The notes under the pieces were generated by a model that worked only from the letters and a program-made list of their open reading frames with translations, was not told where the DNA came from and made no database searches. Below are positions 3,424 through 33,326 of a stretch of DNA of 64,000 bases, piece after piece (within the stretch, counting starts at the first letter, position 1; each line of letters starts with the position of its first letter). The position numbers and the translations under genes are program-made. Origin of the DNA: Methanobacteriota archaeon (GTDB taxonomy: Archaea > Halobacteriota > Bog-38 > Methanoflorentales > Methanoflorentaceae); contig CAVRAO010000008.1 in the NCBI GenBank assembly GCA_963719035.1, positions 288,001 through 352,000 of the forward strand, in the 5' to 3' direction.

Positions 3424-3446
3424 TTGTTATCAGTCGAGGCGATCGA

Positions 3447-14089: not shown

Positions 14090-14616
14090 TTGTCCACCCT
14101 ATTTGTGCTTTTGTTGACCTTCACTTTGGAAGGCCGAACCACCTTTTCATGAAGCTTATAGCCCTTTTGAATCTCCTCAGTTATCACGTTATCTGGTAGG
14201 CTAGTATCACCTTCAGTCATAATTGCCTCGTGCAAATGCGGATCAAAAAACTCTCCGACCGACTTTATGCTCGTGACGCCGCTCTTGCCAAGAATATCGC
14301 ATAGCTGTTTGTGTATCAATTCGATTCCTTCAGAAATGCCTTGGTTGCTTTCAGTCCGCAGTGCCTGAGCAGCTCGTTCAAGGTTGTCAGAGATGACAAG
14401 CAATTCCTTAATCAGTTCAACAGATGCGTACTTTGAGAGATGCTCACTTTGTGTCTTAGTTCGCCGCTTAAAGTTTTCAAAGTCAGCCTGAAGCCTTTGT
14501 AGGCGCGAGAAGTATTCCTCATTCTGTTTCTTGACGCTGTCAAGTTCCGTTAAAAGAGCTGTTTCCGCAGCGGGAATTTCGACTTCGATAAGCTCTTGGT
14601 CATCATCTTGTGGAAT
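14086..14616 (-). CDS. grpE: Nucleotide exchange factor GrpE (~176 aa), probable ATT start
   Basis: Frame stays open upstream of the called TTG through [12 protein letters not shown] and an acidic N-terminus; C-terminal FDPHLHEA and [11 protein letters not shown]. Confidence 0.9.
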
Positions 14617-14852: not shown

Positions 14853-16067
14853 TTAAACAATATTGCTGTAATTGTCGATATCCTTTCTGATTGTCGTTGC
14901 CGATTCAACGGTACAATGTACTCCAACGATTTTTCCCGCCTCGACGAGAATTCCATGCCCAAAACGACAGTTCTCTCCAATTATAGCGCCCAAGTTCATT
15001 ACGTGGTGGAGCTCTCCATCGAGAAACGGCATCGCAATCTTTGTTTGCTCGGTAATGAAATGCGAACCGATCATCGTATTTTTACCTATGATTGAGTTTG
15101 CGACAAGCGAATGAGAACCTAACCGCACATCATTCATTATCAAAGAGTTTCGCACTTCAGTAAAAGAGTCAATCGTAACGCCGTTGCCAATGCTCGTTGA
15201 CGGTAAAATGGTGACATTAGGTCCAATCTCAACATCTCTGCCTATCACAACTGGTCCAAGCACGTACGATCCTGATCTTATGATCGAATTCTCTCCTACG
15301 ATAACGCTTCCTCGCACTTTCGCATCGTCTTCTACCTGGCCATTCTGTTGCGAGGATACATCTTTGATGGAAGAAAGCACCGCAGCATTTGCAGTGAGTA
15401 GATCCCACGGATAGCTCGCGTCGATCCACATAGACGTCGTATGAACCCCAGTAACGTCGTAATGCTTCTCAATCATCCTCTGAATGGTGTCTGTGATCTC
15501 ATATTCTCCTCTTGGGGATATCTTGGTATAGGGAATTTCGTTAAATGCTGCCGGCGTGAAAACATAGATCCCTGTGTTAATATAATGGCTAATATCCGTG
15601 CCCGGTTTTTCGATTATTTGCGTTACGCGGTTTCCTTCCGTTATTGCGACCCCATAACCCTTGACGTTTTCTTTTACAGTCAAAAGTAGCGTTACGTCGC
15701 CAGATGCATTATCCAAGACCTCTTCAATAGCCTCCGGACTGGTTAAGTTATCACCATTTAGAACTAAGAATTTTTCTTCGATTGAATCTTCAGCTAGCTT
15801 AATCGCATGGGCCGTTCCGAGCTGTTGTGGCTGCTCAACATATGTTATTTCTACGCCGAATTTCTTCCCACCTTCGAAGTAGTTCATTACTTTTTCTTTC
15901 TTGTAGCCAACTACAAGACTTATGTCGGTAACACCGCTCCTAGCAAGAGAGTCAATCACATATTCAAGGATGGGACGGTTAGCTACAGGCACCATCGCTT
16001 TTGGTTGAGTCAATGTAAATGGCCTTAAACGCGTTCCTTCCCCTGCAGCTAGGACAATAGCTTTCAC
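14853..16067 (-). CDS. GlmU-like sugar-1-phosphate nucleotidyltransferase with left-handed beta-helix
   Basis: LAAGEGTRLRP, QLGTAHA, EKP, RGEYEITD, hexapeptide repeats; start GTG 16067. Confidence 0.88.
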   Translation of the reverse strand: MKAIVLAAGEGTRLRPFTLTQPKAMVPVANRPILEYVIDSLARSGVTDISLVVGYKKEKVMNYFEGGKKFGVEITYVEQPQQLGTAHAIKLAEDSIEEKFLVLNGDNLTSPEAIEEVLDNASGDVTLLLTVKENVKGYGVAITEGNRVTQIIEKPGTDISHYINTGIYVFTPAAFNEIPYTKISPRGEYEITDTIQRMIEKHYDVTGVHTTSMWIDASYPWDLLTANAAVLSSIKDVSSQQNGQVEDDAKVRGSVIVGENSIIRSGSYVLGPVVIGRDVEIGPNVTILPSTSIGNGVTIDSFTEVRNSLIMNDVRLGSHSLVANSIIGKNTMIGSHFITEQTKIAMPFLDGELHHVMNLGAIIGENCRFGHGILVEAGKIVGVHCTVESATTIRKDIDNYSNIV

Positions 16068-16170
16068 TGTACCCCTTCGCACATCTATACGGAAAATAAC
16101 TATATAGCCGTTACTTATCATGCTGATTGGGACGCAGAAGTTGAAGTCTTGTTGTTGCAGGTGCTAACGC

Positions 16171-17805
16171 TTGCAGATGTGGTCACTTATGAAAGGAGAG
16201 CAATGCAAGAACCTTGAGGAGCTTACAAGCGCTGTCGTAGACAACGCCATTTTCCCTGATAACGAAATACTAGGCAAGCGAAAAGAGTTTGCCAAACACA
16301 TCGAAGCTTTCCACAACGATTCCCAAATCCCACTCTGCATAGACTATGATGGAATCGTCGTGATGACTGCACACCAGCCAAATTTTTTTCCGTACAGCGG
16401 AGTTGTACGAAAGGCAGTACTACTTCACGCTGTGGCAGAACATTTGCGAGAGCGGCTTAACTGTCCTGTAGCGGAGCTATTCTGCTTTGCTGACCAAGAC
16501 TTCGCAGATGAAAGATGGTTCCGAGAAGCGCAACTCCCGAGCGTTAGAAACAAAAACGGAACTCTCAGCCTCCATTTAAAGGTCGCTGACATTTACAATA
16601 ACAAGATCCTCCATGCTGTTCCGAAACCTGAAAGTGATGAAGTTGAGAAAATAAAAAATGAAATTCAGCGGTGGGTCTCTGAATCAAAAGAGTCAATATT
16701 AAAAAGCTCGAAGCGATTGGGGTTAGATGTCCCCGACGTTTGCTTAGAGACAAGATCTGTCTTCGAACTTATTGATCGCGCAGGAGAGCGAAGCACAAAC
16801 GCTGCTGATTTTAACGCTTTTTTTTTAGCATACCTTATCGAACAGTCTGGTCATAAAACTGCTTTCGCACGCTTTTCTGAATGTCAACAGGTATTCCGTG
16901 ATGAAATCGCTTTTATGTTAGAAAACGCCGACCAATACGCAAGATTGATGGCTGAATCACAGAAAAAGCCTACTTTCGCACCTCACACCCCGATTTGGTA
17001 CCATTGCCCTTGCAACGGAAAGGCAGACGTCGAGGCAAGGTCTACTCACGACTGCGCGCTCGTCACTAGGTGTCGTGCGTGTAACACGACCTCCGAGTTT
17101 AAAGGCAACTTGCGCTCAGCGTTGCAGCAGATGTTGCCAAACGTGTCGCTGCGAGCAGAAGCTATGCTCATCGCTTTCAGCGGCATCGGCATTACATTCT
17201 ATGTTGGAGGCATGGGAGGTACCGAATATCTCCGCAGAGCCGCAAAGATCGCTGACGCCCTTGGCGTACGTTTTCCAGTTGTCTCAACGTGGAGGCCCAA
17301 AGATGTTTACGGAGGCGTCGGCCAGTTGGATGCAATGCTAGAACTTTTAAGGGTTAAGGCTCAATACAATCTTGTTCAGGACGACGAGAAGTGCGACGTA
17401 GCAATTCTGCAGCGCGAGTTGGATGACATGTTAGCGGACCTAGATGGGGCGATCTGCGCGCTCGACAATCTCAAAATTGCCGTTGCAAATAGGAAGGTTG
17501 ATGGTTTTAAAGAGAAAATAGGTTTCATCGTCAACATGCAAACTCAGTTGAAGACGCAATTTGAACGGAATAAGATCGCAAGAGATCGTTCGATTGTGGC
17601 CAACACAAAAAAGACACTCAGCATGGTTCCCTCTATCATCGATTATGCAGTCAACATCGGTGTGCAATCGACCACCGCACAATGGTTGGCCGCACTGGAA
17701 CAAAACACGCATTTTGACGAGACGTTGCTACTGAAGACCAATACTGCAATGGACGCGTTATTCGACGAGACAAGACAATTATGCGTCGGTGATTTGTTTG
17801 AATAG
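16171..17805 (+). CDS. BshC-like putative amino-acid ligase (Rossmannoid) with zinc-ribbon insert and coiled coil
   Basis: TAHQPNFFP, FADQD, CPC..CRAC, PNVSLR, YVGGMGGTEY..FPVV, helical C-terminus; 544 aa. Confidence 0.55.
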   Translation: MQMWSLMKGEQCKNLEELTSAVVDNAIFPDNEILGKRKEFAKHIEAFHNDSQIPLCIDYDGIVVMTAHQPNFFPYSGVVRKAVLLHAVAEHLRERLNCPVAELFCFADQDFADERWFREAQLPSVRNKNGTLSLHLKVADIYNNKILHAVPKPESDEVEKIKNEIQRWVSESKESILKSSKRLGLDVPDVCLETRSVFELIDRAGERSTNAADFNAFFLAYLIEQSGHKTAFARFSECQQVFRDEIAFMLENADQYARLMAESQKKPTFAPHTPIWYHCPCNGKADVEARSTHDCALVTRCRACNTTSEFKGNLRSALQQMLPNVSLRAEAMLIAFSGIGITFYVGGMGGTEYLRRAAKIADALGVRFPVVSTWRPKDVYGGVGQLDAMLELLRVKAQYNLVQDDEKCDVAILQRELDDMLADLDGAICALDNLKIAVANRKVDGFKEKIGFIVNMQTQLKTQFERNKIARDRSIVANTKKTLSMVPSIIDYAVNIGVQSTTAQWLAALEQNTHFDETLLLKTNTAMDALFDETRQLCVGDLFE

Positions 17806-18421
17806 AGTAGTGCTAGCGATCGGCGCTCATCCTGATGACTGTGAATTAGGTTGCTACGCCACGTTAGCCTATCACAAAAGCAAAGGCGACTCGGTTCACC
17901 TCATGATACTCTCAAAAGGCGAGGCGGGGGGACCAAGTGAAAAAAGAATTACAGAGAGCAAAGAAGCCGCCCGGGTACTTGGTGCGGATAGCATCACGAT
18001 CGGCGACCTAAGAGATCGGATGATTACAACTGACTATCAGACAATCGAGCTTATTCAGGCAAAGTTAGAGGAATTACAGCCGGACAGGATATACACTCAC
18101 AGCCCGCACGATAATCATCAAGATCATCGAAATGCTGCGTTAGCAACTATGACGCTTTACCGGCATGTTGACGATATATTCCTTTATGAGTCCCCGAGCG
18201 TGTCACACGAGTTCACTCCGCGGGTTTTTGTCAATATAACGCGTTTCTTCCATGTCAAAAACGAGGCTTTAAAACTCCACGAAACACAGAATAACAAATA
18301 TTACGTTAGAACAGAAGCGATCGCTGCTCTTGCTCAGTATCGCGCTTTTCAGGCTGGGATGCTAACTACGTATAATCACAGCAAAGCTGAAGCTTTCGAT
18401 CTAGCAAAATTAACTTTATAA
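17789..18421 (+). CDS. PIG-L/LmbE (BshB-like) N-acetyl-sugar deacetylase
   Basis: AIGAHPDD, GEAG, R..E...A, HQDH, final AEAF; overlaps the stop of the upstream gene. Confidence 0.9.
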   Translation: MICLNRVVLAIGAHPDDCELGCYATLAYHKSKGDSVHLMILSKGEAGGPSEKRITESKEAARVLGADSITIGDLRDRMITTDYQTIELIQAKLEELQPDRIYTHSPHDNHQDHRNAALATMTLYRHVDDIFLYESPSVSHEFTPRVFVNITRFFHVKNEALKLHETQNNKYYVRTEAIAALAQYRAFQAGMLTTYNHSKAEAFDLAKLTL

Positions 18422-18450: not shown

Positions 18451-18789
18451 TTAAGCACCTTTTCGAGGTTTAACCACCCTACGCCTGTCTTTGACCGCCA
18501 AGCCCGCTGCTCTTAACGCCCATATAATTAGGAAAAAGATGGTTACGAGGGTAAGAGCGGCCAGCAGGCTGTAAGGAGTGATTCCGCCTGTGAGACTTAT
18601 GAGCGATTGAGAATAGCTCATGAGAAGCCCAATCGTAACTACAATTGTAATGCTTAATCCGATAGATATTGCGAGCCGCTCGGTCACTTCTAGTTGATTT
18701 AATCGTGGAAAAAATGCGAGCGACATAGCGAACCCCGGAACGACAAGGACAGCAATGAAAGCAAGAGCAATTTGTATGATGCTCGACAT
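18451..18789 (-). CDS. DUF1616-like small membrane protein
   Basis: VPGF..SLAFFP, ERLAISIGLSI, three TM helices; GGAGGAG RBS before ATG 18789. Confidence 0.7.
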   Translation of the reverse strand: MSSIIQIALAFIAVLVVPGFAMSLAFFPRLNQLEVTERLAISIGLSITIVVTIGLLMSYSQSLISLTGGITPYSLLAALTLVTIFFLIIWALRAAGLAVKDRRRVVKPRKGA

Positions 18790-18908
18790 GACTCCTCCAA
18801 ACTCATATACTTCAGATAAACGTGGGACCCTAGGACATGCTTTACGCAAATAGAGGTTGAACGAACCTAACCTTTTTCTCTAAAAATGAAGCAACAAAAT
18901 CAATCTTT

Positions 18909-19820
18909 TTAACTCATAAAGCGACTTAACTTTTCAAGACCGTCAGTGATTTTAGTTTCTGGCTCATAGTCAATGAGCTTCTTTGCTAAGCTGATATCTG
19001 CCAAAGATCGCCTCCCATCTCCAACCCGCGGCGTTGTGTGTACGATACGTGCATTCGTGGGCACTATTTCTTTTATTTTTTTGGCGAGGTCGTTTATGGA
19101 CGTCTCTACCCCACTTCCGACGTTAATGGCGGTACCCGAAGCTTTACTTTTTGCCGCTAGCAGATTTGCCCGAACTACGTCCCTCACGTAGACGAAATCA
19201 CGAGTTTGCTTACCATCCCCAAATATCTGGATTTTAGCATTTGACCTCGCATCGTAGAAAAACTTACTTATCACACCAGCGTATGCGTTTTCGGGTCGCT
19301 GATATGGCCCGTAGACATTGAAATATCTCAACGAAATCGTGTCAATGCCGTACAAGCTGTGATAAGCGGCCAGATACAGCTCGCCGGAATACTTACTAGC
19401 TGCATATTGTGAAATGGGCCGGATCGGTTGCATCTCGTCAATAGGAAAAACATCTGCATTTCCATAAACGGCAGCGCTCGATGAATAAATAATCTTAGAT
19501 ACATCATTCTTCCGAGCAGCTTCACATACCGAGAGAGACCCTAAAATGTTGTTTTCCAAATCCACAAATGGCTCTCGCGTGCTTGCAACGACATCTACGC
19601 GCGCAGCAGTGTGGAAGACTATATCGACGTCTTTGAGTGCCTCAGAGGTAGTTTCAGCGTCTCGAATGTCACCTTTTATAAAATGAACATTAGGCAATCG
19701 GACCACTCGCGCTACACTGCTAAGATTGTCCAAGATCCGCACTTCTGAGAACTCGTTTGAAAGCAATTCAGCGAGCTGATTGCCGATAAATCCGTATCCG
19801 CCTGTAACTAGCCCAATCAT
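18909..19820 (-). CDS. NAD-dependent NDP-sugar epimerase (GalE/WbpP-like SDR)
   Basis: TGGYGFIG, SSSAAVYG, YAASK, RYFNVYGP, QTRDFVYV. Confidence 0.9.
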   Translation of the reverse strand: MIGLVTGGYGFIGNQLAELLSNEFSEVRILDNLSSVARVVRLPNVHFIKGDIRDAETTSEALKDVDIVFHTAARVDVVASTREPFVDLENNILGSLSVCEAARKNDVSKIIYSSSAAVYGNADVFPIDEMQPIRPISQYAASKYSGELYLAAYHSLYGIDTISLRYFNVYGPYQRPENAYAGVISKFFYDARSNAKIQIFGDGKQTRDFVYVRDVVRANLLAAKSKASGTAINVGSGVETSINDLAKKIKEIVPTNARIVHTTPRVGDGRRSLADISLAKKLIDYEPETKITDGLEKLSRFMS

Positions 19821-19895
19821 ATCACGAAAACACAAGACAAGTTCATTCCCGTCGGCTAATATTTAAAAGCATCGTCAGGCTTAAAGTGGCTTTCT

Positions 19896-20972
19896 TTAGG
19901 AGGAGCTCCGCTTAGTCTTGGGCCGTCTGAGGGTCCCCCATTTATAAGGATATTCCATCACAAGCTTCTTGTTGTGGCACAATGGGGTGACTTTGTCTGG
20001 GCACGAAGTTAGGCAGTCTCCGTTACAAATTGGCGTAAAATGCCCAAGCTCGTCCCTCATAGTTAATTTACCGAGCGTTGTGCATTGCGTTAGCCGGAAT
20101 AAGGCAGGATTATACTGCTCCAAACATATTGACAGGGTCATTTCGTACTTCCCACATAGCGATTCAACTTGCCTATACAACTTTAGCCGATCCACAAAAC
20201 TGAGAGAGTGATTTCCCTCTTTGAGCGCATATTTGGCTCGTATTTGAGTTCCCAAATCTGAGAATGGGCTATTCTCTATCCTAGAGATAAGTCTGTTAAA
20301 AACCCTACCATTGAAAGTGCCCGTTGATATCGTCACATTCCTAATTCCTATCGAATTTAAAGTCTCAAAAAGCTCGGTAAGTTCGTCGTGATCGTCTGTA
20401 AACCCAGAGATGATCGGATCGACTCTTGCCACCACATCTACGCCTGCGTGTGCGAGCTGCTCTATCGCTCTAAACCTTTTAAAAGCAGGTGGTGCCTTGC
20501 TTAACACGTGCAGTTTCTTCTCATTAATGCTCTCACACGTAAACGAAACGCGAAATCGTTTGTAGTCGAGCCAATTGGTGTCAAGAATTTTAAGCACGAG
20601 GTCTGACTTAGTAACGACAGTGAAGTAGACATCGTGTTTAACAGCAACGCTCATGGAGCGTAAAGCAGTATTATGTACGAGGTCAAGTGGTTGGAAAGGG
20701 TCCGTAACTGCGCAAAAATAGAGTGGGGGGCAGATCGCCACGCTACTTAGCTCAGCGTCGAGCAATTCCGGTGTGTTTTCGTATACTTCAATCGAGCGCC
20801 CATCACGAGACCACGGGTACCCTTTGGCATAGCAATAAACGCAGTCAAAAATACAATCTCCGCTTTTCGTGACATTCACAATTGCTGCGTGCGGACATTT
20901 CCGATGATTGATACGATATGGGAAATCATGGATAAGTCTGCTGCGTCGCTCTATTGGGACTGCTTTTAACAT
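19896..20972 (-). CDS. Radical SAM protein, spore-photoproduct-lyase-like family, Cys-rich C-terminus
   Basis: CIFDCVYC (CxxxCxxC), TDPFQP, VTKS, RVDPII; tail CNGDCLTSCP...C. Confidence 0.8.
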   Translation of the reverse strand: MLKAVPIERRSRLIHDFPYRINHRKCPHAAIVNVTKSGDCIFDCVYCYAKGYPWSRDGRSIEVYENTPELLDAELSSVAICPPLYFCAVTDPFQPLDLVHNTALRSMSVAVKHDVYFTVVTKSDLVLKILDTNWLDYKRFRVSFTCESINEKKLHVLSKAPPAFKRFRAIEQLAHAGVDVVARVDPIISGFTDDHDELTELFETLNSIGIRNVTISTGTFNGRVFNRLISRIENSPFSDLGTQIRAKYALKEGNHSLSFVDRLKLYRQVESLCGKYEMTLSICLEQYNPALFRLTQCTTLGKLTMRDELGHFTPICNGDCLTSCPDKVTPLCHNKKLVMEYPYKWGTLRRPKTKRSSS

Positions 20973-21169
20973 GCTGCGTCTTTGTAATGTTTATGTATTC
21001 AACCCTTAGTAATAAGCAATATTCTCAAAACGCGAGCTTACGAATGTTTTGGTTGTTCTAGCTTCGCATTCAGACAATCGAAAAGTTGAAGGTAATAACT
21101 AAGTTAAAGACCATATATGCGTATCTATCTGCGGCTGCACGGACAGTTGAATACACGAGCGATGATTAA

Positions 21170-21724
21170 ATGAACTGGCTAGAGAAATTTCTTTACAGAT
21201 TAAATATCGTTTTATTCCGAATCTGCTCGGGTAGTGCGCGAGTCTACTTAGCACGAAGACTAGGAGTGCGGATTGGCAGCAACTGTCAACTTTATTACTG
21301 CAACTTAAGCACCGAACCGTATCTGATCTCGATAGGCAATAACTGTAAAATTACGTATGGGGTAACCTTCATGACCCACGACGGCGCGAAGTGGGTTTTG
21401 GAGCAAAATCACGATTTCGAAGGCACCAAGTTTGGCCCTATTTCTATCCACGATAACTCCTTCATCGGCGTAAACTCAATAATAATGCCCAATGTGGTAA
21501 TTGGCCCGAACAGTATCGTTGGAGCTGGATCCGTCGTCACCAAAGATGTGCCTCCAAATACGGTGTATGCGGGGAATCCTGCAAGATTTATTTGCACATA
21601 TGAAGAATATTTAGAAAAATGTCGACTCAAAAACACCGGCACCATCCCTCGGGAAAACATGAAAGATGTTTTGACTAAGATGTTTGAGCAAGAACTCGAA
21701 CAACGAGTTGAACCCAGAGATTAA
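21170..21724 (+). CDS. Hexapeptide-repeat sugar acyltransferase
   Basis: TEPYLISIG, THDG, IVGAGSVVTKDVP, AGNPAR. Confidence 0.85.
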   Translation: MNWLEKFLYRLNIVLFRICSGSARVYLARRLGVRIGSNCQLYYCNLSTEPYLISIGNNCKITYGVTFMTHDGAKWVLEQNHDFEGTKFGPISIHDNSFIGVNSIIMPNVVIGPNSIVGAGSVVTKDVPPNTVYAGNPARFICTYEEYLEKCRLKNTGTIPRENMKDVLTKMFEQELEQRVEPRD

Positions 21725-22017
21725 GCGCTTAAGATTTGGAGCCACGCAGATTAAAACGGATGATATGAAGTTATTATGTATATCGCGGAGCTACCTTGTC
21801 ACTGCTGAGTAAATTTTGCTTTCTGCAAGCTGTAGTGAACTTTTTTATCGCATCAACTTAGAGAAGCCCCCTTACTTGCGACAACTATAGAACCGGGCCA
21901 CACTCGCAGACTGCCTATCAAAGTGCGCTCCAACTTGTTGTATGTTGTCTGCATACTGGAAACGTCTGGATTCGTGACCTCGGTAAGGGCTAGGCAAACG
22001 CTAAGCGCTTGGCGACG

Positions 22018-23046
22018 CTAAATATAATTCAAGCCGCGCAAAATTTCTTCTATTTCTGTACGAGTGATGAAAATTGGCTCTTTAGGTGTGTAAGGCTGGA
22101 TATCTCCGCAAGCTGCTAAATCACTGTAATGCTTCCGGACGTGTGACAGCTTTTCCATCTCTGGCGCTACAATGAGCATGTCCTCTGTTTCGTAAGCGCG
22201 TATCTGCTCGCTCTCCGTCAAGAGCTCTTCTCGGAGTTTTTCTCCGGGCTTAACGCCGATGATTTTGGTACTAACATCGTCGGGCTTATTTCCGTACTTA
22301 GATGCTAATATTTCTATCATAACGCTGGCTACGTCCGTGATCCTCATTAACTTCATTTTAAAGATGAAGACTTCTCCCCCTCGAGCGATTTCACATGCGT
22401 GCAGAATCAGCTTAAGGGCATTGGGCATCAGGATTCTAGGCCGTACCATTTCCTGGTGTGTGATTGTCACAGGCCCCCCCGTTTCAATCTGTCGTCGGAA
22501 CAACGGAAATATGGACCCTCGCGAGCCGAGCACATTGCCGAATCTAACGCTGGCAAAAACTGTTCCCGTTGTCGTATGGTTAGCAATCGTCAGTAGGCGT
22601 TCTGCGAAGAGTTTCGAGGCACCATATGCCGTGGTTGGCTTGACAGATTTGCCCGTGCTCGGAAACACGACTTTCTTAACATTATGTCGTAAACACACCT
22701 CGACCAAGTTCTGGGTTCCGATGATGTTCGTTTTGACTGCTTCGTAAGGATTGTCCTCGCACATCGGCACATTCTTGAGCGCCGCAAGATGGAAGACGTA
22801 ATCAACTCCTTCAAAAAGAGGGTCAATCCGTTCCTTATCCCGTATATCAGCCACAAAAAACGACACTTTTTTTGATTTGAGCTCTTGCTCAAGATCGTAG
22901 AGAGCGCCTTCGTTATTATCCAAAAGTACTAAAGCACGAGGATTGACATTTAACAAAGCTCGAACAAGCTGCGACCCTACTGAGCCGGCTCCGCCTGTCA
23001 ACAATATGGTCTTATTAGTATAGAACGAGGATCCAGAGGTACCCAT
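22018..23046 (-). CDS. UDP-GlcNAc 4,6-dehydratase-like SDR (Polysacc_synt_2, PseB/CapD family)
   Basis: TGGAGSVG, HLAALK, YGASK, VRFGNVLGSRGS, PGEKL.EEL. Confidence 0.85.
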   Translation of the reverse strand: MGTSGSSFYTNKTILLTGGAGSVGSQLVRALLNVNPRALVLLDNNEGALYDLEQELKSKKVSFFVADIRDKERIDPLFEGVDYVFHLAALKNVPMCEDNPYEAVKTNIIGTQNLVEVCLRHNVKKVVFPSTGKSVKPTTAYGASKLFAERLLTIANHTTTGTVFASVRFGNVLGSRGSIFPLFRRQIETGGPVTITHQEMVRPRILMPNALKLILHACEIARGGEVFIFKMKLMRITDVASVMIEILASKYGNKPDDVSTKIIGVKPGEKLREELLTESEQIRAYETEDMLIVAPEMEKLSHVRKHYSDLAACGDIQPYTPKEPIFITRTEIEEILRGLNYI

Positions 23047-23321
23047 GTTTATTTCAATATAAAGAAGCGGTTTTGTGTATTCCAATATTATTCTTATACT
23101 TTTCTTTCCGATTGTGTCGTTATTGTAAGCTTAAATTCCAGCGGCTGTCGTTCTATCTGACCGCTCTTATTAAGCATAAGGCCAGAGGATCTAGTGGATC
23201 GCATAACGTCCTATTACCATAATGCGCTGTCCAGCCGTTCGTTAGAGTGTGCAGATCATAAGTCCAACTACTGTTTTTAGATCTCGAACGCTTCTGAGAC
23301 GAAAGAGCGCCACCCTCGTTA

Positions 23322-24461
23322 CTAGCTATCGCTCAGAAGCTCTTCAAACAGGGCCTTTTCTTTTGCTTCGCAAAGTTTGTTTGAGTATTTTTTAAGCGCA
23401 ACTGTTCTACACATTTGCGGAAACTCTTCGTTCTCCAAGGCTTTCGAAATCTTCTCCGCAATTTCACTCGGATCATCAGACGCAAGGTATCCGGTAACGC
23501 CATCCTCGATCGTATCTCTTATCCCAAACACGTCCGTACCGACGGCGGGCGTTCCACAAGACATCGCCTCGATCAGAACTCTTGGCTGACCTTCGATTGA
23601 ACTAGTCATCACCATCAAATCTGCCATATTCATAAACTTCGGCACCTCTGAGTAGGGCACCGCGCCGGTAAAAAGAACTCTATCAGCAACCCCAAACGAT
23701 TCTGCCATTTCCTCAAGTTCATTTTCAAGATCACCTGTACCAACGATTAACAGTCTATATTTCTGATCAAGCTGCTGAACGGCCCTTAGAAGCAAATCAA
23801 GCCTTTTTACCGGATGCAATCTCCCAACAAACATGAGGATTTTTTCGTCTCGAATGCCATACCTTTTTTTAAGCTCTGTGACGTCAATTCCAGGCCGAAA
23901 AACGTCTTCATCAAAAGTCAATGGAATAACAACTACTCTCCTAGCCCCTCTTTGATGAAGCTCATTTTTAAGAGATGCATTGCGTGTGACCATTACATCA
24001 GCATTTTTGATGACATAGTTTTCGATCAAGCTAGCTAAGGTTCCTAAGGCTTTTCCTTTGTTTACATGCGTAACTTGATATGCCCAGTTATATTCATAAA
24101 AGACTACTGACGGCTTTTCTTTGAGTTTAGCTGCCAAGACTGCCCCTGGACAGGCAGCGCTAAAGCCTCTTACAAGGGATCGTCCCTTCAATCGCTTGGC
24201 AATTTTGAAAGCACTCAAGATGGTGTAGGAAAGGTGCCAAAGGCCAAATCCGCGAAAAAGCGCCGAGGGAACATGTTCGATTGCTGATGCTAATTCAAAC
24301 CTGCGAGTGTCCCCAGTAATTAAAAAAAGATCGCACAAACCTTCGTATCGCAACAAACTATCCTTAAGAAGCCGAATCATACTGCCGTCGGTGTTGACGC
24401 TATCAACTAATCGAACATCAAATGAGGTGACAAAAAGCAGTCTACACCGGTCTTGAGTCAT
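23322..24461 (-). CDS. Glycosyltransferase family 4
   Basis: FVGRLHPVK, EGQPRVLIEAMSCGTP (ExxxxxxxE); start ATG 24461. Confidence 0.9.
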   Translation of the reverse strand: MTQDRCRLLFVTSFDVRLVDSVNTDGSMIRLLKDSLLRYEGLCDLFLITGDTRRFELASAIEHVPSALFRGFGLWHLSYTILSAFKIAKRLKGRSLVRGFSAACPGAVLAAKLKEKPSVVFYEYNWAYQVTHVNKGKALGTLASLIENYVIKNADVMVTRNASLKNELHQRGARRVVVIPLTFDEDVFRPGIDVTELKKRYGIRDEKILMFVGRLHPVKRLDLLLRAVQQLDQKYRLLIVGTGDLENELEEMAESFGVADRVLFTGAVPYSEVPKFMNMADLMVMTSSIEGQPRVLIEAMSCGTPAVGTDVFGIRDTIEDGVTGYLASDDPSEIAEKISKALENEEFPQMCRTVALKKYSNKLCEAKEKALFEELLSDS

Positions 24462-24550
24462 CCGATTGATTATAGCAGATGACGTTAATAATCTTTTAGA
24501 TACACTTACAAAAGTATATTTAACAACAGCCGGCTGAATAGTTGACCGAT

Positions 24551-25834
24551 ATGGCCAACACTGTCTCGAGATTTGCAGCTGCTTTCCAAAAAGCACGAGA
24601 CTTGCTTTCTCTTCACTTTATCCGCAGCATCGTGCGAGGGCTCTCTGTTTTGGGAGCCGGATATGCGCTGGCGAAAATCATCTCGCTTGCAGAGGAGCTC
24701 TTCATTGGCCGTTACCTTGGGGTCGAAGTTTATGGTACATACCTCATCATTCTTGCTATAGCTGCCATTTTAAACGCAGTGATGATGCTTGGGCTTCCGA
24801 AGGCCGTCGTGAAGCTCGTCGCCGAACGAAATGAACGCATTGTTGACGTGCCGACAAATGCATTATTTATTGCTTTTTTTCTCGCAGTAGTAACGTCTGT
24901 GCCCGTAATCATCGTCGGGTATTCGGACAGCTCTTTAGCGTTACTAGGAATTACGCGGTATGAGTTGGTTTTTGGCTATACCATAGCGGTTCTTCTCACA
25001 CTGTACACCGTCGCACAATCCTTCAAACTAGCAATGTATAAGATTAGATTTGTTGTCGTCGCGGACGTTCTTTATTGGAGCGTTGCGCTCATCTTTTTCA
25101 TAGTTTTTCGTGACTTATCGCTAGGCTTGATTGGCATATGTGTTGGCTCTTTGCTCGGCTCTCTCATTCTCATTTACCGGGTACCACTCAGTTTCGCACG
25201 CTTCTCGAATCTAAGCATAAAGTCACTCATCCCACTTAGTGTATACCTAGGTGCGGATAGCGTACTCGGTATTTCAGCGCAACAGATTAGCTTTCTCTAT
25301 CTGAACATAATAGCAACAGCTTACGCTGTTGGAGTCTTTGGCGCACACTACCGATCAAGCATATTTCTGATCGTGCCGCTCGTAACAGTACTCTCAATGG
25401 CCCTTTATCCGCGCTTCTGCTCAATTGAACAGAGCTTGCGACCAAGCGTTGGGAGATATCTTGCCTATGGTGGCATTCCAATTTGTATCGCGGCGTTTGT
25501 TCTGTCGTTTATAAGTGGCGTGTTCTTCCTGCAAATTTTTAGAGTCCCGCTAATCTTCCCACTTCTGCTTGTTCTCGCAATTTATTCAGGGCTCTTCGTC
25601 TACAACAGAATCTGGGACAAATTAGTAACAGCGTGCGAGGGCGCGAAGATGGTCGGCTGGGGAATCGCATTTGGGACCTTAACGTTCTTGTCGGTTATGC
25701 TTGTACTCACCCCATACGTAGGCGGTATGCTCGCAATCGCCACCGGGATGGTCGCAAACGAGATCGTTTATGGCGTCTTGCTGCTGAGCTGGTTCAAGCG
25801 TCGCGTCGCAGACATTGGGAACCAAAAACTATAA
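24551..25834 (+). CDS. Oligosaccharide flippase (Wzx/MOP family)
   Basis: About 12 TM helices; RYLGVEVYG and AVGVF motifs; glycan cluster context. Confidence 0.75.
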   Translation: MANTVSRFAAAFQKARDLLSLHFIRSIVRGLSVLGAGYALAKIISLAEELFIGRYLGVEVYGTYLIILAIAAILNAVMMLGLPKAVVKLVAERNERIVDVPTNALFIAFFLAVVTSVPVIIVGYSDSSLALLGITRYELVFGYTIAVLLTLYTVAQSFKLAMYKIRFVVVADVLYWSVALIFFIVFRDLSLGLIGICVGSLLGSLILIYRVPLSFARFSNLSIKSLIPLSVYLGADSVLGISAQQISFLYLNIIATAYAVGVFGAHYRSSIFLIVPLVTVLSMALYPRFCSIEQSLRPSVGRYLAYGGIPICIAAFVLSFISGVFFLQIFRVPLIFPLLLVLAIYSGLFVYNRIWDKLVTACEGAKMVGWGIAFGTLTFLSVMLVLTPYVGGMLAIATGMVANEIVYGVLLLSWFKRRVADIGNQKL

Positions 25835-28392: not shown

Positions 28393-29394
28393 TCACAATG
28401 TTGACAGCACTGCGAGCATTATGGCAGCAGCGCCAGATATTCCGCAAAACAGCCACATCAGTTTAACCAGTCTCGGCTCTTTCATGGATCTTCGGCTTAA
28501 GATAAAATCAGACAAGTTCTTTCGAACAGAATATGATTTCGACGGGATCAAGTACCCCTCGTTCGTAACTTGGGTGGCTGTATATAGGTGACTCTCTGTA
28601 ACCTTTCCAACAGAGAACAGCACCATTGCATAGTTGATGATGTACGGCAACGCTGCAATAACAGCGAACACTTCGATTTTTAGCACTATTGCGCCGACAG
28701 CGATAGCGCTTCCTACGCAGAGCGTCCCTATATCGCCTGCAAATATGCGGGCAGGATACCGGTTGTACGGAAAAAAACCCACAAGTGCCCCGAGTAGCGC
28801 CGCCAATATTATTAGCCCTGCTATGTCACTAGTCGGCGACAACATAATCCCTCCGACGATTATCAGACAAGAAGTCAGTATAGCACCACACCCGATCTCC
28901 ATTCCATTGAATCCAGCAAATGTGTTTACAGCGTTAGCTCCAGCGGTAACGGCAAAGGGTACAAGAGGAATCCATGCGAGCCCAAGCCATAGGGCCCCTA
29001 CCAACGGTATTAAAAGATATGGGTCACGCCCAGCAGCTAATATGAGCGGAATGCCAGCGAAATAACCGAGGAGGGGCTTTTCCCAAGCCCCGAGGTGCAT
29101 TACATCATCTAGGGCCCCTACCATTGCTGATAGGGTCACCACCAGCAGCGAGATCAAAATCAGCTCTAAACTTAGGCCTAAAAAAGCAGCGACGATTAAC
29201 GACGTAGCGAACCCCGCGTAAATTGCAAAACCACCCATTTCCGAGATCTGAGGCTTATCTACTTTGTGAACGTCGATGCCAGATACGCCTGCAGATTTCA
29301 TTCTCGAGATGAGAGGCGGCGCTGCAGCAAATGTAACTACAAATGAAAGAAGAATGGAGACTATAAGTAAAAATAGCGCATAGCTATCAATCAT
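28393..29394 (-). CDS. UDP-GlcNAc:polyprenyl-phosphate GlcNAc-1-P transferase (GPT/AglH/MraY family)
   Basis: GIDVHK, EMGG, GALDD, NAVNTFAGFNG, YPARIFAGD. Confidence 0.88.
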   Translation of the reverse strand: MIDSYALFLLIVSILLSFVVTFAAAPPLISRMKSAGVSGIDVHKVDKPQISEMGGFAIYAGFATSLIVAAFLGLSLELILISLLVVTLSAMVGALDDVMHLGAWEKPLLGYFAGIPLILAAGRDPYLLIPLVGALWLGLAWIPLVPFAVTAGANAVNTFAGFNGMEIGCGAILTSCLIIVGGIMLSPTSDIAGLIILAALLGALVGFFPYNRYPARIFAGDIGTLCVGSAIAVGAIVLKIEVFAVIAALPYIINYAMVLFSVGKVTESHLYTATQVTNEGYLIPSKSYSVRKNLSDFILSRRSMKEPRLVKLMWLFCGISGAAAIMLAVLSTL

Positions 29395-29420
29395 CTAGAA
29401 TGTCACTTTTTTCAAGGTTC

Positions 29421-30716
29421 TTAAGTCTTCTTAGTTGGCCCAAATGTGCGCACTATCTGAGCTCGCGTAGTGTCTAGCGTAATGGCGCCTGTCTCGTCGA
29501 ACATAGCCTGCACAGTACCTTCGGCTTGAGATGCAGCAAGCGTGCGCATACCCATAAAACCCTCCGAAAAACACGTGAGGTGAGTATAAAATCCCGTTTT
29601 TGGTACTTGCGGACTGATCCTGAGGTTCCCCTCTTCAAAAAGCTGAACGACTTTGGAAACTATTCGCTCTGACGATTTTCCGTCGTAAAGAGTGTCATCT
29701 ATTGTGTTTCCTGACGCTGTCGATCGTATGGCGTCAGTCAAGACATCAGGATCCGGACTCTTGCCTACTAATCTGTTCCATCCGTTTTCGATAGTCTCAA
29801 CATAGTAGGTGCTATCAGACAGTGTGATACACGGAGTTTGCAAAACCGCGCTTTCCTTCTGAGGTCCCCCAGAATCGGTGATTAATACATTGCAGTCCAT
29901 CATTAGTCGTAAAAAATCTGTATAAGGAAGGGGATCGATCAGATGGATATGCTCAGACGACTCCAGTTTGTCCATCAGGCCAAACTTGATGAGATGGTTT
30001 CGCGTGTTTGGATGCAAGAGCACGATGACACTATAATCGTCGAGATTGACCGCAACTTTCACGATTCGACCTAGCGCCTCAGGGTTTCCAATGTTCCACG
30101 GCAGCCTTACGGCGAATGCTGCAAGCGGCCTTTCGCCTTCGCGATATACATCAAAAGAATCCGCCTTCAAAGCTCTTGGTTTATAATCGAGGAGCGAATC
30201 TATTAGAGGATCCCCTAAATAGTGGACGTAATCAGGATCATAACACTCTTCGAGCAAATTCAGATATGCCGTGTTACATACGGGAAAGAAAAGCGTCGAG
30301 CACATTTCGATTACCTTTCTTCTTACATCACTATGCACGTCGCGTAACGAACGATACCCCGACTCAATATGACCAACTGGAACAAATTTCATCGAAGACG
30401 CGATAGCTGCGCTAAACGAAGAGATGACATTACCTTGAACGAACACGAAGTCAGGTCGTGCTTTTTCTAATATATCGTCGATCTGACTGATCATAGCGGA
30501 GATCTGCTTATTGTAACTCATATTCCCAAGCGAGAGGCTATAATCGGGCTCTCTAAGATCCAAATCGATTAGCAGGTCTTCATACATCCCGCGGTCAAAG
30601 TGCTGTCCTGTATGAGCGAAAATGAGTTCAACCTCCTCGTTCTTATCAATCTCCTTAAGAAAAGAAGCCATCCCTATTAGCTCCGCTCGCGTTCCAATAA
30701 AAACAGCAATCCGCAT
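29421..30716 (-). CDS. UDP-GlcNAc 2-epimerase-like (WecB family), degenerate active site
   Basis: GTRAE, HTGQH, HIESGYRS, HPNT, TDSGG..KE. Confidence 0.8.
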   Translation of the reverse strand: MRIAVFIGTRAELIGMASFLKEIDKNEEVELIFAHTGQHFDRGMYEDLLIDLDLREPDYSLSLGNMSYNKQISAMISQIDDILEKARPDFVFVQGNVISSFSAAIASSMKFVPVGHIESGYRSLRDVHSDVRRKVIEMCSTLFFPVCNTAYLNLLEECYDPDYVHYLGDPLIDSLLDYKPRALKADSFDVYREGERPLAAFAVRLPWNIGNPEALGRIVKVAVNLDDYSVIVLLHPNTRNHLIKFGLMDKLESSEHIHLIDPLPYTDFLRLMMDCNVLITDSGGPQKESAVLQTPCITLSDSTYYVETIENGWNRLVGKSPDPDVLTDAIRSTASGNTIDDTLYDGKSSERIVSKVVQLFEEGNLRISPQVPKTGFYTHLTCFSEGFMGMRTLAASQAEGTVQAMFDETGAITLDTTRAQIVRTFGPTKKT

Positions 30717-30789
30717 AGCTCGTCTCCTTTGAGCTAACAAGCGCCATCGGCTAAATAGCTTATCATCTCGAAGTGAACGGTTCGCATTA

Positions 30790-32019
30790 TCAGTGCGTGG
30801 CTCCTTTCCCTTCGATTTGCGAACCTGGCGGATAGACTCCGGCAGCTAGTGCGCCAACGCCGACAATCGATCCGGGACCTATCGACGTTCCGACATTTAT
30901 CATGCTATTTATGCCTGTGTGTACGTCGTCGCCCATAATGACGCCAAGTTTTCGTCGTCCGGTGCGAACTCCGGCGACTGTAATAGGCTTTGCGTCAAAA
31001 CGGAGGTTAGCTACCAACGTCCCCGCACCGAAATTACATCGCTGCCCGATAACGCTATCGCCGACGTAGGATAGGTGCCCAATTCGGCTGTCGTCCATAA
31101 TTACGCAGTTTTTTACTTCAACAGCGTTGCCGATCTTGACTCCGTTTCCTATGCACGTACTAGGACGAATACAACAGTTTGGCCCTATTTCGCAGCGTTC
31201 TCCAATTCTTGCTGGGCCCATGATATAAGCACCATTTCTGACAATCGAGCCACGTCCGATTTTCACAGCGCCTTCTATCGTTGCAAAGGGCTCAACAATA
31301 CCTTCGTTTTTGCATTCAAGTGTTTGGAAAAGGAGCTCATTGGCATACAGCAGATCCCACGGTCTCCCTATGTCTATCCACTGTTCCCTGACGTCAAGAT
31401 ATCGCACTTTGTCACCTTGGTCAATCACCAACTGTATCGCGTCGGTAATCTCGTACTCATCTCGTGCCGACTTAGGGATCTGAGCAATAGCGTCGAATAT
31501 CATCGGGTTAAAAGCGTAGATACCTAGGTTTGCCAAATCGGAAACAGGTTTACCAGGTTTTTCCGTTATTTTTACAACTGCGTCACCAACTACGTCGATT
31601 ATGCCATAGTTAGTAGGGTCTTTCGCTCTTTTAGCCGCGATAACAACTGCAGAATCTTTTTGGGCTTCAGCTAGCGATTTCAACGTAAGGGGGCTTACCA
31701 GACTGTCGCCATTGAGGGCAAGAAAGCGCTCATCCACGAGGTCTCTAACCTGGCTAACTGCGTCCGCCGTCCCGCGCTGTTTTTCTTGCGTTACGAACTC
31801 AATTTGAGCCCCGTACTGCGCTTCATGGAAATGAGAGCGAATAACTTCCTCCTGATACCCAGTTACGATTATCACGTGCTTAATGCGTGCTTCGACGCAC
31901 GAGTTCACGATGTGTTCAATTATAGGGATCCCTACCACCGGTAGCATTACTTTCGGACGAGTGTACGTAAGCGGCCTCATCCGTGTCCCTTCACCCGCAC
32001 CGAGAATGATCGCTAGCAT
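30790..32019 (-). CDS. glmU: Archaeal bifunctional GlmU (uridyltransferase/acetyltransferase)
   Basis: GAGEGTRMRP, RDEYEITD, HLSYVGDS, NFGAGT, NLRFD, GRRKLG. Confidence 0.9.
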   Translation of the reverse strand: MLAIILGAGEGTRMRPLTYTRPKVMLPVVGIPIIEHIVNSCVEARIKHVIIVTGYQEEVIRSHFHEAQYGAQIEFVTQEKQRGTADAVSQVRDLVDERFLALNGDSLVSPLTLKSLAEAQKDSAVVIAAKRAKDPTNYGIIDVVGDAVVKITEKPGKPVSDLANLGIYAFNPMIFDAIAQIPKSARDEYEITDAIQLVIDQGDKVRYLDVREQWIDIGRPWDLLYANELLFQTLECKNEGIVEPFATIEGAVKIGRGSIVRNGAYIMGPARIGERCEIGPNCCIRPSTCIGNGVKIGNAVEVKNCVIMDDSRIGHLSYVGDSVIGQRCNFGAGTLVANLRFDAKPITVAGVRTGRRKLGVIMGDDVHTGINSMINVGTSIGPGSIVGVGALAAGVYPPGSQIEGKGATH

Positions 32020-33326
32020 TACAAGTGCCTCTTCACTATGGCCATAGCGGTTCTGTAGAGCTCTTTTGCCGCCGACAAGTCTTGCGCTTCAGCAGTTATC
32101 CTTAGCTTTGGCTCTGTTCCGGATTTTCTCACCAAGAGCCAACCTTCCTCAAAATCAAGCCTCACGCCATCTATAGTCGTCATCTCGACGTAGTTAAGCG
32201 CGCGTAGTTCCTGAGCAATCGCCACCATCGGATCTTTGTCACTTTGGTGCTTACAGGATCCTCGCAAAATGTGATACTTAGGAAACTGTGCGATAAGTTC
32301 AGAGATCGATTGTTCGGCTGCAATTGAAACGATTCGCGCTGCTGCGTAGATGCCATCCGGACAGTATGAAACGCTGGGAAAAATCCAGCTGCCGCTGCTT
32401 TCACCTCCGAAGTCCGCCCCTGAATGCTTGACTTCTTCGGCGACATAAACGTCACCTACGCGCGTTCGACGGACAGGACAAGGGAGCACGTCATCAACCA
32501 TGCGTGAGACATCAACGGGACAAACTACCATCTTTTTCGCTTCGTTCACGCCAAACAGCGCGAGCATCTCGTCGCCAGTGACGTACTTCCCGCCGCGGTC
32601 AATTGCCATCATGCGATCAGCATCACCGTCGTGCGCTATGCCGATGTCGGCGTGAAAACTTCGCACAGCTTCCGTGAGAAGGTTTAAGTTGCTTTCGATC
32701 GGCTCGGGATCTCTTGCAGGAAAGAACCCATCAAGCTGTGCATTGAGCGTAATCACGTCACAACCCATTTCTCTAAGCACGTATGGTGTAATAGTTGCTC
32801 CTGCTCCTGAGCCGCAGTCAACAACTACTCTGCAGCTTACCTTGTTGAAGTGAGCTAACACTTCCTTTTTGTGATCATTGATTGCGTTTTCATAAGAAGT
32901 GATTCTCCCGATGGCGTCCCAGTTCGCCCGACTTCCTGAATACACCGGACGCGATAACGCTTCGGTAATAGATGATTCAATGTCTTTTTGCTGCCTGCTA
33001 TTGAACGAGGTTCCGTCAGAATTCCACAATTTGATGCCGACATATTCAGAAGGATTGTGTGAAGCAGTGACCATAATCCCACAATCATAATTTCGTGCTG
33101 CGTAAGAGAGTGTAGGTGTCGATACGAGGCCGATTCGTGTGATGTCGCACTCACAAGCGGTGAGTCCGGAAATAAGCCCAAACTCAATCATTTCGCTAGC
33201 AATTCGAGGATCTCTGCCGATCACGGCAGATGTACACCTTGATCCGACGGCAAGTCCAATACTAACTGCTAGCTCTGAGTTGAGGTCCTTATTAGCTATC
33301 CCACGAATTCCCGAAGATCCGAACAT
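32019..33326 (-). CDS. glmM: Phosphoglucosamine mutase
   Basis: FGSSGIRG, TASHNP, DGDADR, GGESSG, RKSGTEP; coupled to glmU. Confidence 0.9.
   Translation of the reverse strand: MFGSSGIRGIANKDLNSELAVSIGLAVGSRCTSAVIGRDPRIASEMIEFGLISGLTACECDITRIGLVSTPTLSYAARNYDCGIMVTASHNPSEYVGIKLWNSDGTSFNSRQQKDIESSITEALSRPVYSGSRANWDAIGRITSYENAINDHKKEVLAHFNKVSCRVVVDCGSGAGATITPYVLREMGCDVITLNAQLDGFFPARDPEPIESNLNLLTEAVRSFHADIGIAHDGDADRMMAIDRGGKYVTGDEMLALFGVNEAKKMVVCPVDVSRMVDDVLPCPVRRTRVGDVYVAEEVKHSGADFGGESSGSWIFPSVSYCPDGIYAAARIVSIAAEQSISELIAQFPKYHILRGSCKHQSDKDPMVAIAQELRALNYVEMTTIDGVRLDFEEGWLLVRKSGTEPKLRITAEAQDLSAAKELYRTAMAIVKRHL

Follow-up and report, generated by a model that had tools for sequence, protein, structure and literature searches.

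A BshC-like protein paired with a PIG-L de-N-acetylase at an archaeal glycan locus: a candidate module for exchanging the N-acyl group of amino sugars

We analysed a stretch of 64,000 nucleotides (hereafter the window) from the genome of a methanogen of the family Methanoflorentaceae (assembly GCA_963719035.1, contig CAVRAO010000008.1, positions 288,001 to 352,000), in which two overlapping genes lie within a cluster of glycan and sugar-modification genes. The first encodes a large protein resembling BshC, the cysteine-adding enzyme of bacillithiol synthesis, and the second a zinc de-N-acetylase of the PIG-L/LmbE family (Table 1). The large protein stands apart within a BshC/WbqC superfamily, has a core of the class I synthetase type and is not a BshC orthologue. 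We hypothesize, with somewhat better than even confidence, that the pair forms a cytoplasmic module in which an amino sugar of a glycan precursor is de-N-acetylated and then re-N-acylated, probably with an amino acid.

The 3' end of the large-protein open reading frame (ORF) overlaps the start of the deacetylase ORF by 17 nt, and the pair is divergent from a GlmU-type gene, an arrangement that had been described correctly in an initial annotation of this DNA. The length of 544 aa given there holds for the ORF as read from TTG, but the true start of the protein is probably the ATG at 16189, which is favoured because it yields 538 aa, the length of many homologues, and begins with MKGE as the homologues do. 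In one study, two metatranscriptome contigs with about 90% identity to the window cross the gene junction (17113-18024 and 17130-17962); such contigs by themselves prove neither transcription nor a single transcript, and they give a weak hint that the pair is co-expressed in a relative. RNA runs contained just 0.05 of the sampled words from the locus. A promoter and terminator scan of the locus returned counts at the level of shuffled sequence, its consensus being bacterial and the host archaeal.

Table 1. Genes, motifs and gene blocks of the locus, in window coordinates
Feature	Position	Strand	Details or basis
BshC-like large protein gene	16171..17805	+	ORF of 544 aa from TTG; 538 aa from ATG 16189
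TAHQP, residues 66-70, after first Rossmann strand	16366..16380	+	aligns with GGQQ of BshC and IHQPN of WbqC
FADQDF, residues 106-111	16486..16503	+	aligns with AGEDH of BshC and YDDVQF of WbqC
Cys4 zinc ribbon CPC..CRAC (C279, C281, C301, C304), between the two Rossmann halves	17005..17082	+	model strands 275-310
Second conserved block, PNVSLR (323-328) and YVGGMGGTEY (344-353)	17137..17229	+	alignment conservation
WRPKD (374-378), after last Rossmann strand (strand 370-373)	17290..17304	+	predicted secondary structure
C-terminal helical domain, helices 410-441, 446-463, 466-484 and 489-537	17398..17781	+	AlphaFold model
PIG-L/LmbE zinc de-N-acetylase gene	17789..18421	+	ORF of 210 aa, GTG start
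HPDD metal-binding/catalytic motif of deacetylase, residues 14-17	17828..17839	+	
HQDH motif of deacetylase, residues 110-113	18116..18127	+	
Archaeal GlmU-type sugar-1-phosphate nucleotidylyltransferase/acetyltransferase	14853..16121	-	422 aa; TIGR03992 372 bits against cut-off of 292
DUF1616 small membrane protein, 3 hydrophobic segments	18451..18849	-	PF07760, E 1.2e-13
Sugar-modification block: NAD epimerase/dehydratase, radical SAM protein, hexapeptide acyltransferase, PseB-like UDP-GlcNAc 4,6-dehydratase, GT4, flippase	18909..25834		family matches
GT4 (family 4 glycosyltransferase)	23322-24596		within the 18909..25834 block
Polysacc_synt flippase	24542-25834		within the 18909..25834 block
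Glycan initiation and UDP-GlcNAc supply: PF00953 phosphosugar transferase, UDP-GlcNAc 2-epimerase-like protein, second GlmU, GlmM	28393..33326	-	family matches
PF00953 phosphosugar transferase	28393-29394	-	Pfam

Searched on its own, the large protein matched no Pfam or NCBIfam model at E<=1, and a single-sequence search of the PDB returned noise only. Its relatives are numerous: 212 proteins reached E<=1e-3 among the 8000 candidates scored, and the family comprises 296 clusters at 50% identity in an exhaustive library. Among the 120 relatives listed, 52 are close archaeal proteins that carry no Pfam annotation; the other 68 lie at about 33% identity (E ~1e-75 to 1e-83), and 63 of these contain PF10079, the N-terminal Rossmann-like domain of BshC. 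The same domain is matched by 21 of the 33 members of a family alignment that reaches down to 32% identity (best E 2.3e-13), a signal that is marginal in these relatives, with 35 bits over about 100 residues, and on TIGR03998 the bathyarchaeial relatives score only 42 bits against a cut-off of 265.8. When the profile of the 33-sequence alignment was compared with the PDB, BshC (4wbd) was the sole match below E 0.01 (E 8.4e-4), with AHQPN opposite GGQQ and ADQDF opposite AGEDH. A wider profile also aligned a second block to BshC residues 320-377, placing NVVTRP..IAGPGEINY opposite ISxRA..YVGGxGGxEY, an alignment that is non-significant alone. The motifs reported earlier for this protein (TAHQP, FADQD, CPC..CRAC, PNVSLR and YVGGMGGTEY) are all found in the translation, and their supposed BshC-like order is borne out for the two blocks that align with 4wbd, if weakly for the second. 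A protein-language-model search recovered only archaeal clusters named 'hypothetical protein', some of them partly annotated with BshC domains, and in one related Atlas cluster 15% of the members carry PF24850 (CC_BshC).

An AlphaFold model built on the alignment (pLDDT 91.6, pTM 0.90) was compared with 48,161 PDB representatives using VIA-align. BshC, whose fold had been predicted to match, ranked first (4wbd; Z 32.8, 465 residues, root-mean-square deviation 5.8, model residues 1-522 against chain residues 22-539), followed by class I lysyl-tRNA synthetase (LysRS; Z 24.9-25.1), for which the alignment with 1irx covers 293 residues at a deviation of 2.9 (Z 25.1). The next structural matches, at Z ~13.5 or lower, are all class I aminoacyl-tRNA synthetases or MshC (cysteinyl-, glutamyl- and methionyl-tRNA synthetases, abbreviated CysRS, GluRS and MetRS, among others). 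Foldseek likewise matched the model to 4wbd (E 1.5e-16, TM 0.54), and rescoring the Foldseek list gave an identical ranking. The large protein and BshC are similar in length and share one architecture, with a Rossmann core, connective insertions and a helical C-terminal domain, together with collinear motif blocks and a functional partnering with a PIG-L/LmbE deacetylase; the coiled coil that had been expected after the motifs corresponds to long C-terminal helices in the model at 410-484. They differ in that identity is just 11-12% in the structural alignment, the GGQQ of BshC is replaced by HQPN, and the large protein carries an invariant Cys4 zinc ribbon, a feature that the initial annotation called atypical of BshC. 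Moreover, its gene adjoins the deacetylase gene within glycan clusters, whereas in Bacillus subtilis bshC lies apart from bshA and bshB. The description of the protein as BshC-like therefore stands on fold and profile, while orthology does not, given the lack of a TIGR03998 or PF10079 match.

Two other enzymes with this fold are informative. Class I LysRS (1irx; TIGR00467) shares the catalytic fold, lies about 12 Z units above the other aminoacyl-tRNA synthetases and, like the large protein, has a four-Cys insertion in the connective region; it differs in possessing the HIGH and KMSKS motifs, both of which the large protein lacks. At the sequence level hhalign found no signal between the family and 22 class I LysRS sequences (probability 0.5%). 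The host genome encodes its own class I LysRS (C2:334726-336189), with HVGN, KMSSS and a CxxC..CxC insertion. MshC also has the class I synthetase fold and acylates the amine freed by a PIG-L-family enzyme, MshB, and matches the model at Z ~13.4. It is a close paralogue of CysRS that retains the ATP-dependent adenylation machinery; the large-protein family lies closer to BshC and class I LysRS than to MshC and is devoid of the ATP motifs.

Conservation within the family is concentrated in these motifs. Invariant positions of the 33-sequence alignment include H68, Q69, P70 and N71, D108, Q109 and D110 (FADQD being residues 106-110), the four cysteines C279, C281, C301 and C304 (CPC 279-281, CRAC 301-304), and S326, R328, Y344, G346, G347, G350 and Y353 in the second block, as well as W374, R375, P376 and D378. 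In a wider alignment of 44 sequences, reaching down to 16% identity, H68, Q69, N71 and the four cysteines are still invariant. Conservation of the motif residues is well above chance. The zinc-ribbon insertion amounts to about 100 residues and the helical tail to about 135. On the model, WRPKD would occupy the position of KMSKS in class I synthetases; this assignment, and that of YSGV to the HIGH site, were made by eye.

A second line of homology leads to WbqC. Comparison of the large-protein family with 25 archaeal WbqC sequences by hhalign gave a probability of 92.9% (E 3.6e-7 over 131 columns), with IHQPNYLPYLG opposite AHQPNFFPYSG and YDDVQF opposite FADQDF, in agreement with the earlier remark that HQPNFFP recalls WbqC-type proteins. 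A collinear second block (YisG..G..YL against YVGGMGGTEYL) aligns weakly, at E 2e-4 and a probability of 46%. From these profile alignments we regard the catalytic core of the large protein as homologous to WbqC. WbqC proteins (PF08889), which occur in O-antigen-type clusters, are only about 225-250 aa long and have neither the zinc-ribbon insertion nor the C-terminal helical domain of the 538-544 aa large protein. PF08889 was not among the 25 Pfam families, of 64, that were listed for the 33 alignment members, and archaeal WbqC proteins score 200-277 bits on it. WbqC genes are present in 40 of 401 sampled genomes of the host's phylum. Within 1.5-kb flanks, 16 of 30 archaeal WbqC loci (L059-L088) contain a PIG-L gene whose product matches the profile of the BshC-like proteins' partners at E 1e-42 to 1e-73; both branches of the superfamily are therefore accompanied by one and the same deacetylase subfamily, and the WbqC and PIG-L module appears to parallel the one described here.

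The partner enzyme reaches 92.4 bits on PF02585, for which the cut-off is 28.2 (E 4.1e-26), and the residues of both motifs (H14, P15, D16 and D17; H110, Q111, D112 and H113) are kept among 23 partner deacetylases, which upholds its earlier identification as an intact zinc deacetylase. BshB1, BcZBP and diacetylchitobiose deacetylase share PF02585 and the AHPDD and HxDH motifs with it, at profile E-values of 4e-34 to 5e-31; its closest solved relatives are the archaeal diacetylchitobiose deacetylase (E 4.1e-34) and then BshB1 (E 1e-31). It falls below the NCBIfam equivalog cut-offs for BshB1 (TIGR04001; 87.2 bits against 182.5), BshB2 (34.8 against 195.25), MshB (17.4 against 224.35) and Mca (24.3 against 277.15), and forms a subfamily of its own that travels with BshC-like or WbqC genes.

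The pairing of the two genes recurs well beyond the window. We sampled 49 loci from species-representative genomes, called their ORFs and compared these with the window proteins. At 29 of the 49 a PIG-L gene is directly adjacent to the BshC-like gene, overlapping it or within 132 nt, and at three it lies 2.1-4.3 kb away; in a Borrarchaeum locus and in one unclassified archaeon the deacetylase gene is two genes away. By their record titles the paired loci belong to methanogen metagenome-assembled genomes (MAGs), Bathyarchaeia, Methanomethylicus, Thermoplasmata, Hadesarchaea and Methanosarcinaceae. Gene order is not fixed: the BshC-like gene precedes PIG-L in the methanogen family, and PIG-L precedes the BshC-like gene at nine of the ten distant-group loci titled Bathyarchaeia and at the Methanomethylicus, Thermoplasmata, Hadesarchaea and Methanosarcinaceae loci. 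With only two PIG-L genes in the 2.19 Mb of the host genome, adjacency by chance would be rare; the genome contains a single copy of the BshC-like gene. The linkage with deacetylase and glycan genes that had been predicted for homologues is thus seen in several archaeal phyla.

Across the sampled genomes of the phylum, the family is present in 43 of 401, the host genome counted. All 23 further genomes of the host's own family carry it, its occurrence elsewhere is patchy (19 of 377 genomes of other families), and it is also found in a Borrarchaeum MAG and in ammonia oxidisers. A quick maximum-likelihood tree identified a second copy in some genomes of the genus as a recent duplicate and placed the copy of the sister genus at the base. 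Three loci titled Bathyarchaeia archaeon or Acidiferrales bacterium (L006, L017 and L022) fall within the clade of the methanogen family, with genes 57-70% identical to the window, which suggests mis-binned contigs. The most distant relatives, from Halorientalis persicus (L046) and a Vicinamibacterales MAG (L049), share 23-27% identity, show neither the C.C…C..C zinc-ribbon pattern nor a PIG-L gene in the fetched flanks, and in the former are neighboured by aminoglycoside-phosphotransferase-like kinase, GATase1-like, inositol monophosphatase-family and RuBisCO-like proteins; the Halorientalis protein may belong to a different small-molecule pathway.

The surroundings of the pair are those of a glycan cluster. 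The GlmU-like, GT4, GPT-type (PF00953) and flippase genes that had been noted nearby are all confirmed by family matches. A divergent GlmU-type gene is kept beside the pair throughout the methanogen family (L001-L004, L009, L011, L013-L015, L017, L018, L020, L021 and L025). The DUF1616 gene adjoins the pair in the window's subclade and lies one or two genes away at Bathyarchaeia loci (L027, L028, L030, L033 and L034), and it is possibly a third conserved partner. We assigned neighbour families by Pfam to 118 ORFs from 21 more distant loci and to 44 ORFs from 10 loci. Across phyla these neighbours include DegT aminotransferases, GFO/IDH/MocA oxidoreductases, hexapeptide and GNAT acyltransferases, UDP-sugar dehydrogenase, nucleotidyltransferases, family 2 glycosyltransferases (GT2), GT4, flippases, radical SAM/SPASM proteins and DUF1616. 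An MCH gene in the window and the record titles of the nearest loci mark a methanogen.

We propose that the two enzymes would act in sequence. The PIG-L/LmbE hydrolase, an assignment made from family membership and motifs, would remove the N-acetyl group from a residue of the N-acetylglucosamine (GlcNAc) type, which could be part of a nucleotide sugar, of a lipid-linked precursor or of a small glycoside. The large protein would then attach a carboxylic acid, most probably an amino acid, to the exposed 2-amine through an amide bond. Since hydrophobic segments are lacking in both proteins, this editing would be cytoplasmic, carried out by a soluble two-enzyme module before export of the glycan. 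BshC and MshC form an aminoacyl amide on glucosamine (GlcN), and are so named in NCBIfam. Two kinds of donor may be considered about equally likely: an acid activated by ATP, as in MshC and the aminoacyl-tRNA synthetases, or a ready-made aminoacyl-tRNA, as in the cyclodipeptide synthases, which derive from class I synthetases. Rather than canonical bacillithiol, the expected product would be a surface glycan or glycolipid containing an N-(amino)acyl-hexosamine. The terms ligase and aminoacylate in the initial annotation agree with the fold, the homology and the gene coupling, from which we too infer the second step, but with the canonical ATP motifs missing both describe a putative activity; its suggestion of N-acyl exchange on a glycan is favoured by a neighbourhood that names neither acceptor nor donor. 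As a whole, its picture came through on fold and on linkage, while BshC orthology was not supported, the thiol route lacks a BshA orthologue and a bacilliredoxin, and the ligase role is still one read from context.

Several points weigh against this proposal. No PIG-L gene was found in the fetched flanks of 17 of the 49 loci, at least three of which (L012, L016 and L045) end no more than about 60 nt from the gene on one side, and the recent paralogue and the sister-genus copy sit in housekeeping surroundings with no PIG-L neighbour. None of the 33 alignment members contains a HIGH-like (HxG[HN]) or KMSKS-like (K[MFIL]S[KST]S) string; adenylation chemistry is therefore not evidenced. The large protein itself has no match to PF10079 at E<=10 or to TIGR03998 at E<=1, and PF08889 is not among its three Pfam matches at E<=10. 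Because the nearest solved relatives of the deacetylase use small soluble GlcNAc glycosides, a metabolite fits equally as well as a glycan. To our knowledge BshC has never been reconstituted in vitro, its step being the sole one of bacillithiol synthesis of which this is true, so that the reaction of the model enzyme is itself inferred. For any member of the family, function would be read from genes and models, and sequence alone cannot fix the acceptor, the donor or the product.

The leading alternative to N-acyl exchange is that the pair and the GT4 produce an archaeal low-molecular-weight thiol resembling bacillithiol or mycothiol (Cys-GlcN-aglycone), to which the BshC-like protein would add the cysteine. 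BshC is indeed the top structural match of the large protein, BshB1 is the best NCBIfam model of the deacetylase and the second-nearest solved structure, and the family's presence in every other genome of the host family is what would be expected of a core cofactor enzyme. BshA is the second-best NCBIfam model for the window GT4 (103.6-103.7 bits), but the best GT4 of the genome on BshA (TIGR03999) reaches 172.1 bits against a cut-off of 273.7, and does so at another locus. The deacetylase stays below the cut-off of every equivalog of the thiol pathways, and the genome, which is 91% complete, has no bacilliredoxin (PF06491) and no match to TIGR03998 at E<=0.01, a model that gave matches in 4 of 14 control genomes including B. 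subtilis, two of them above its cut-off. The bacillithiol-like pathway offered as an alternative in the initial annotation thus loses ground on both its BshA orthologue and its redox partner. Across phyla, moreover, the neighbouring genes encode enzymes that tailor nucleotide sugars, GT2 and GT4, flippases and membrane proteins rather than redox functions; WbqC homologues partner the same deacetylase subfamily, and outside the host family the distribution is patchy. A 2020 review (PMC7278568) mentions archaeal InterPro matches to BshC and BshA and the possibility that archaea are bacillithiol-capable, and states that bacillithiol had at that time not been detected in archaea; in a more recent preprint (bioRxiv 10.1101/2025.07.06.663066), a RefSeq BLAST survey found the full pathway in no archaeon. 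A thiol is the less likely of the two products when set against N-acyl exchange on a glycan precursor, and we consider it quite unlikely.

It is decidedly unlikely, in our estimate, that the large protein performs some other reaction, such as joining a carboxylate other than an amino acid, for instance a uronic or hydroxy acid, to the amine, converting a carboxylate of the sugar to an amide, or serving as a synthetase paralogue with a tRNA substrate, in the manner of Glu-Q-RS. The canonical amino-acid-activating motifs are missing, as such a reaction would allow; enzymes for uronic and 2,3-diamino sugars are frequent among the neighbours (UDP-sugar dehydrogenase, GFO/IDH/MocA, DegT and hexapeptide transferases); Glu-Q-RS and other synthetase paralogues appear among the structural matches at Z ~12; and since some paralogues have no PIG-L neighbour, the enzyme can evidently function with no deacetylase gene beside it. 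On the other side, the recurrent and specific association with a de-N-acetylase points to the freed amine as the acceptor, as it is for the analogues BshC and MshC. No anticodon-binding domain was matched, a domain that was not searched for separately, and the alignment with 1irx spans chain residues 3-321 only. A role of the pair in the catabolism or salvage of GlcNAc compounds, with the large protein as an accessory, would resemble the archaeal diacetylchitobiose deacetylase pathway, whose deacetylase is the nearest solved relative of the one studied here; yet neither in the window nor at the annotated related loci does a glycoside hydrolase, sugar transporter or GlcN-6-P deaminase stand beside the pair, the neighbours are biosynthetic (GlmM, GlmU, glycosyltransferases and a flippase), and the known chitin pathway includes no step for a partner with a synthetase fold, which makes this reading highly improbable.

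tRNA genes bear on the possibility of an aminoacyl-tRNA donor. The window contains none. Next to archaeal PIG-L-linked genes no dedicated tRNA or aminoacyl-tRNA synthetase gene was found, and among 33 loci scanned a tRNA lies within 1 kb only at four loci of the recent paralogue. The GluRS gene 11 kb from the pair (3420-5135) is taken to be an ordinary housekeeping enzyme. In each of the seven genomes with the recent paralogue, a tRNA-Cys(GCA) gene is found about 0.55 kb away from it, an adjacency that would suit a cysteine-adding, thiol-forming enzyme; these extra tRNA-Cys genes (L006:12171-12242, L007:12180-12251, L008:12152-12223 and L010:7027-7098) are only about 80% identical to the housekeeping tRNA-Cys. 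The adjacency carries little weight for a thiol because it represents a single clade and evolutionary event and the same tRNA type occurs in genomes that have no paralogue, and for these reasons tRNA-Cys was rejected as a dedicated tRNA. A second extra tRNA-Cys copy differs from the first mainly in the acceptor stem, and the host genome has one tRNA-Cys (C8:136607-136678).

A bacterial operon offers a parallel from the WbqC side and a lead towards an aminoacyl-tRNA donor. In PMC10404621, an operon of the order proSx-GT4-WbqC-lmbE-tRNAProX-murG is described, which holds the same triad of GT4, LmbE and a WbqC/BshC-type protein plus its own prolyl-tRNA synthetase and tRNA, and the discussion there allows that this tRNA may act outside translation. 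One may speculate that BshC-like and WbqC proteins form a single superfamily descended from a class I LysRS-like ancestor, which would have lost the ATP motifs and would transfer an aminoacyl group from tRNA to the amine freed by PIG-L; we regard this scenario as unlikely, albeit worth stating. If it were true, tRNA-dependent N-aminoacylation of hexosamines would be widespread and unrecognised in the synthesis of archaeal, and some bacterial, envelope glycans or thiol cofactors, and the resistance of BshC to ATP-based reconstitution would be explained.

In more general terms, the zinc-ribbon sister family, nearer to class I LysRS and coupled to a deacetylase, offers a second independent system for working out BshC chemistry. 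Given the spread of the family, an as yet unrecognised N-substituent may be common on archaeal surface sugars. BshC-like proteins, WbqC and one PIG-L subfamily would together constitute a recurring module of glycosyltransferase, de-N-acetylase and re-acylase, one that links thiol cofactors, O-antigen-type glycans and the Streptomyces-type operon with its own prolyl-tRNA synthetase and tRNA, and that raises the question of whether aminoacyl-tRNA is used here outside translation. Within the literature searched, which did not extend to subscription-journal papers and supplements and was seen in part, archaeal BshC is mentioned only in the form of database matches and no assay of WbqC function was found; within that same literature, three things are not in print: an archaeal family in which a zinc ribbon is invariant, the proximity of that family to class I LysRS, and the PIG-L partner shared by BshC-like and WbqC proteins.

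Some further features of the window and its genome deserve mention. Between the flippase and the phosphosugar transferase, an ORF at 25900-28221 (+) encodes 773 aa, in which some 11 hydrophobic segments precede a soluble tail of roughly 270 aa. Since Pfam and NCBIfam give no match, the GT-C label that the ORF had been given is provisional; its product may be a glycan polymerase or an oligosaccharyltransferase-like protein. Identical GT4 matches with the same scores occur elsewhere in the genome at C4:14460-21400 and C2:769018-775736, a sign that a glycosyltransferase block of several kb was duplicated, either in the genome or through assembly. Upstream of the pair, dnaJ is split into two overlapping ORFs at 11121-12279 (-), one with DnaJ_C and the other with DnaJ and CXXCXGXG, where relatives have one ORF of 385 aa; grpE at 14086-14403 (-) encodes 105 aa against 155-200 aa in relatives; and a diphthamide-synthase-like ORF at 7183-7647 (-) has 154 aa of a 219-position profile. 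These three cases are probably frameshifts or truncations of the assembly.

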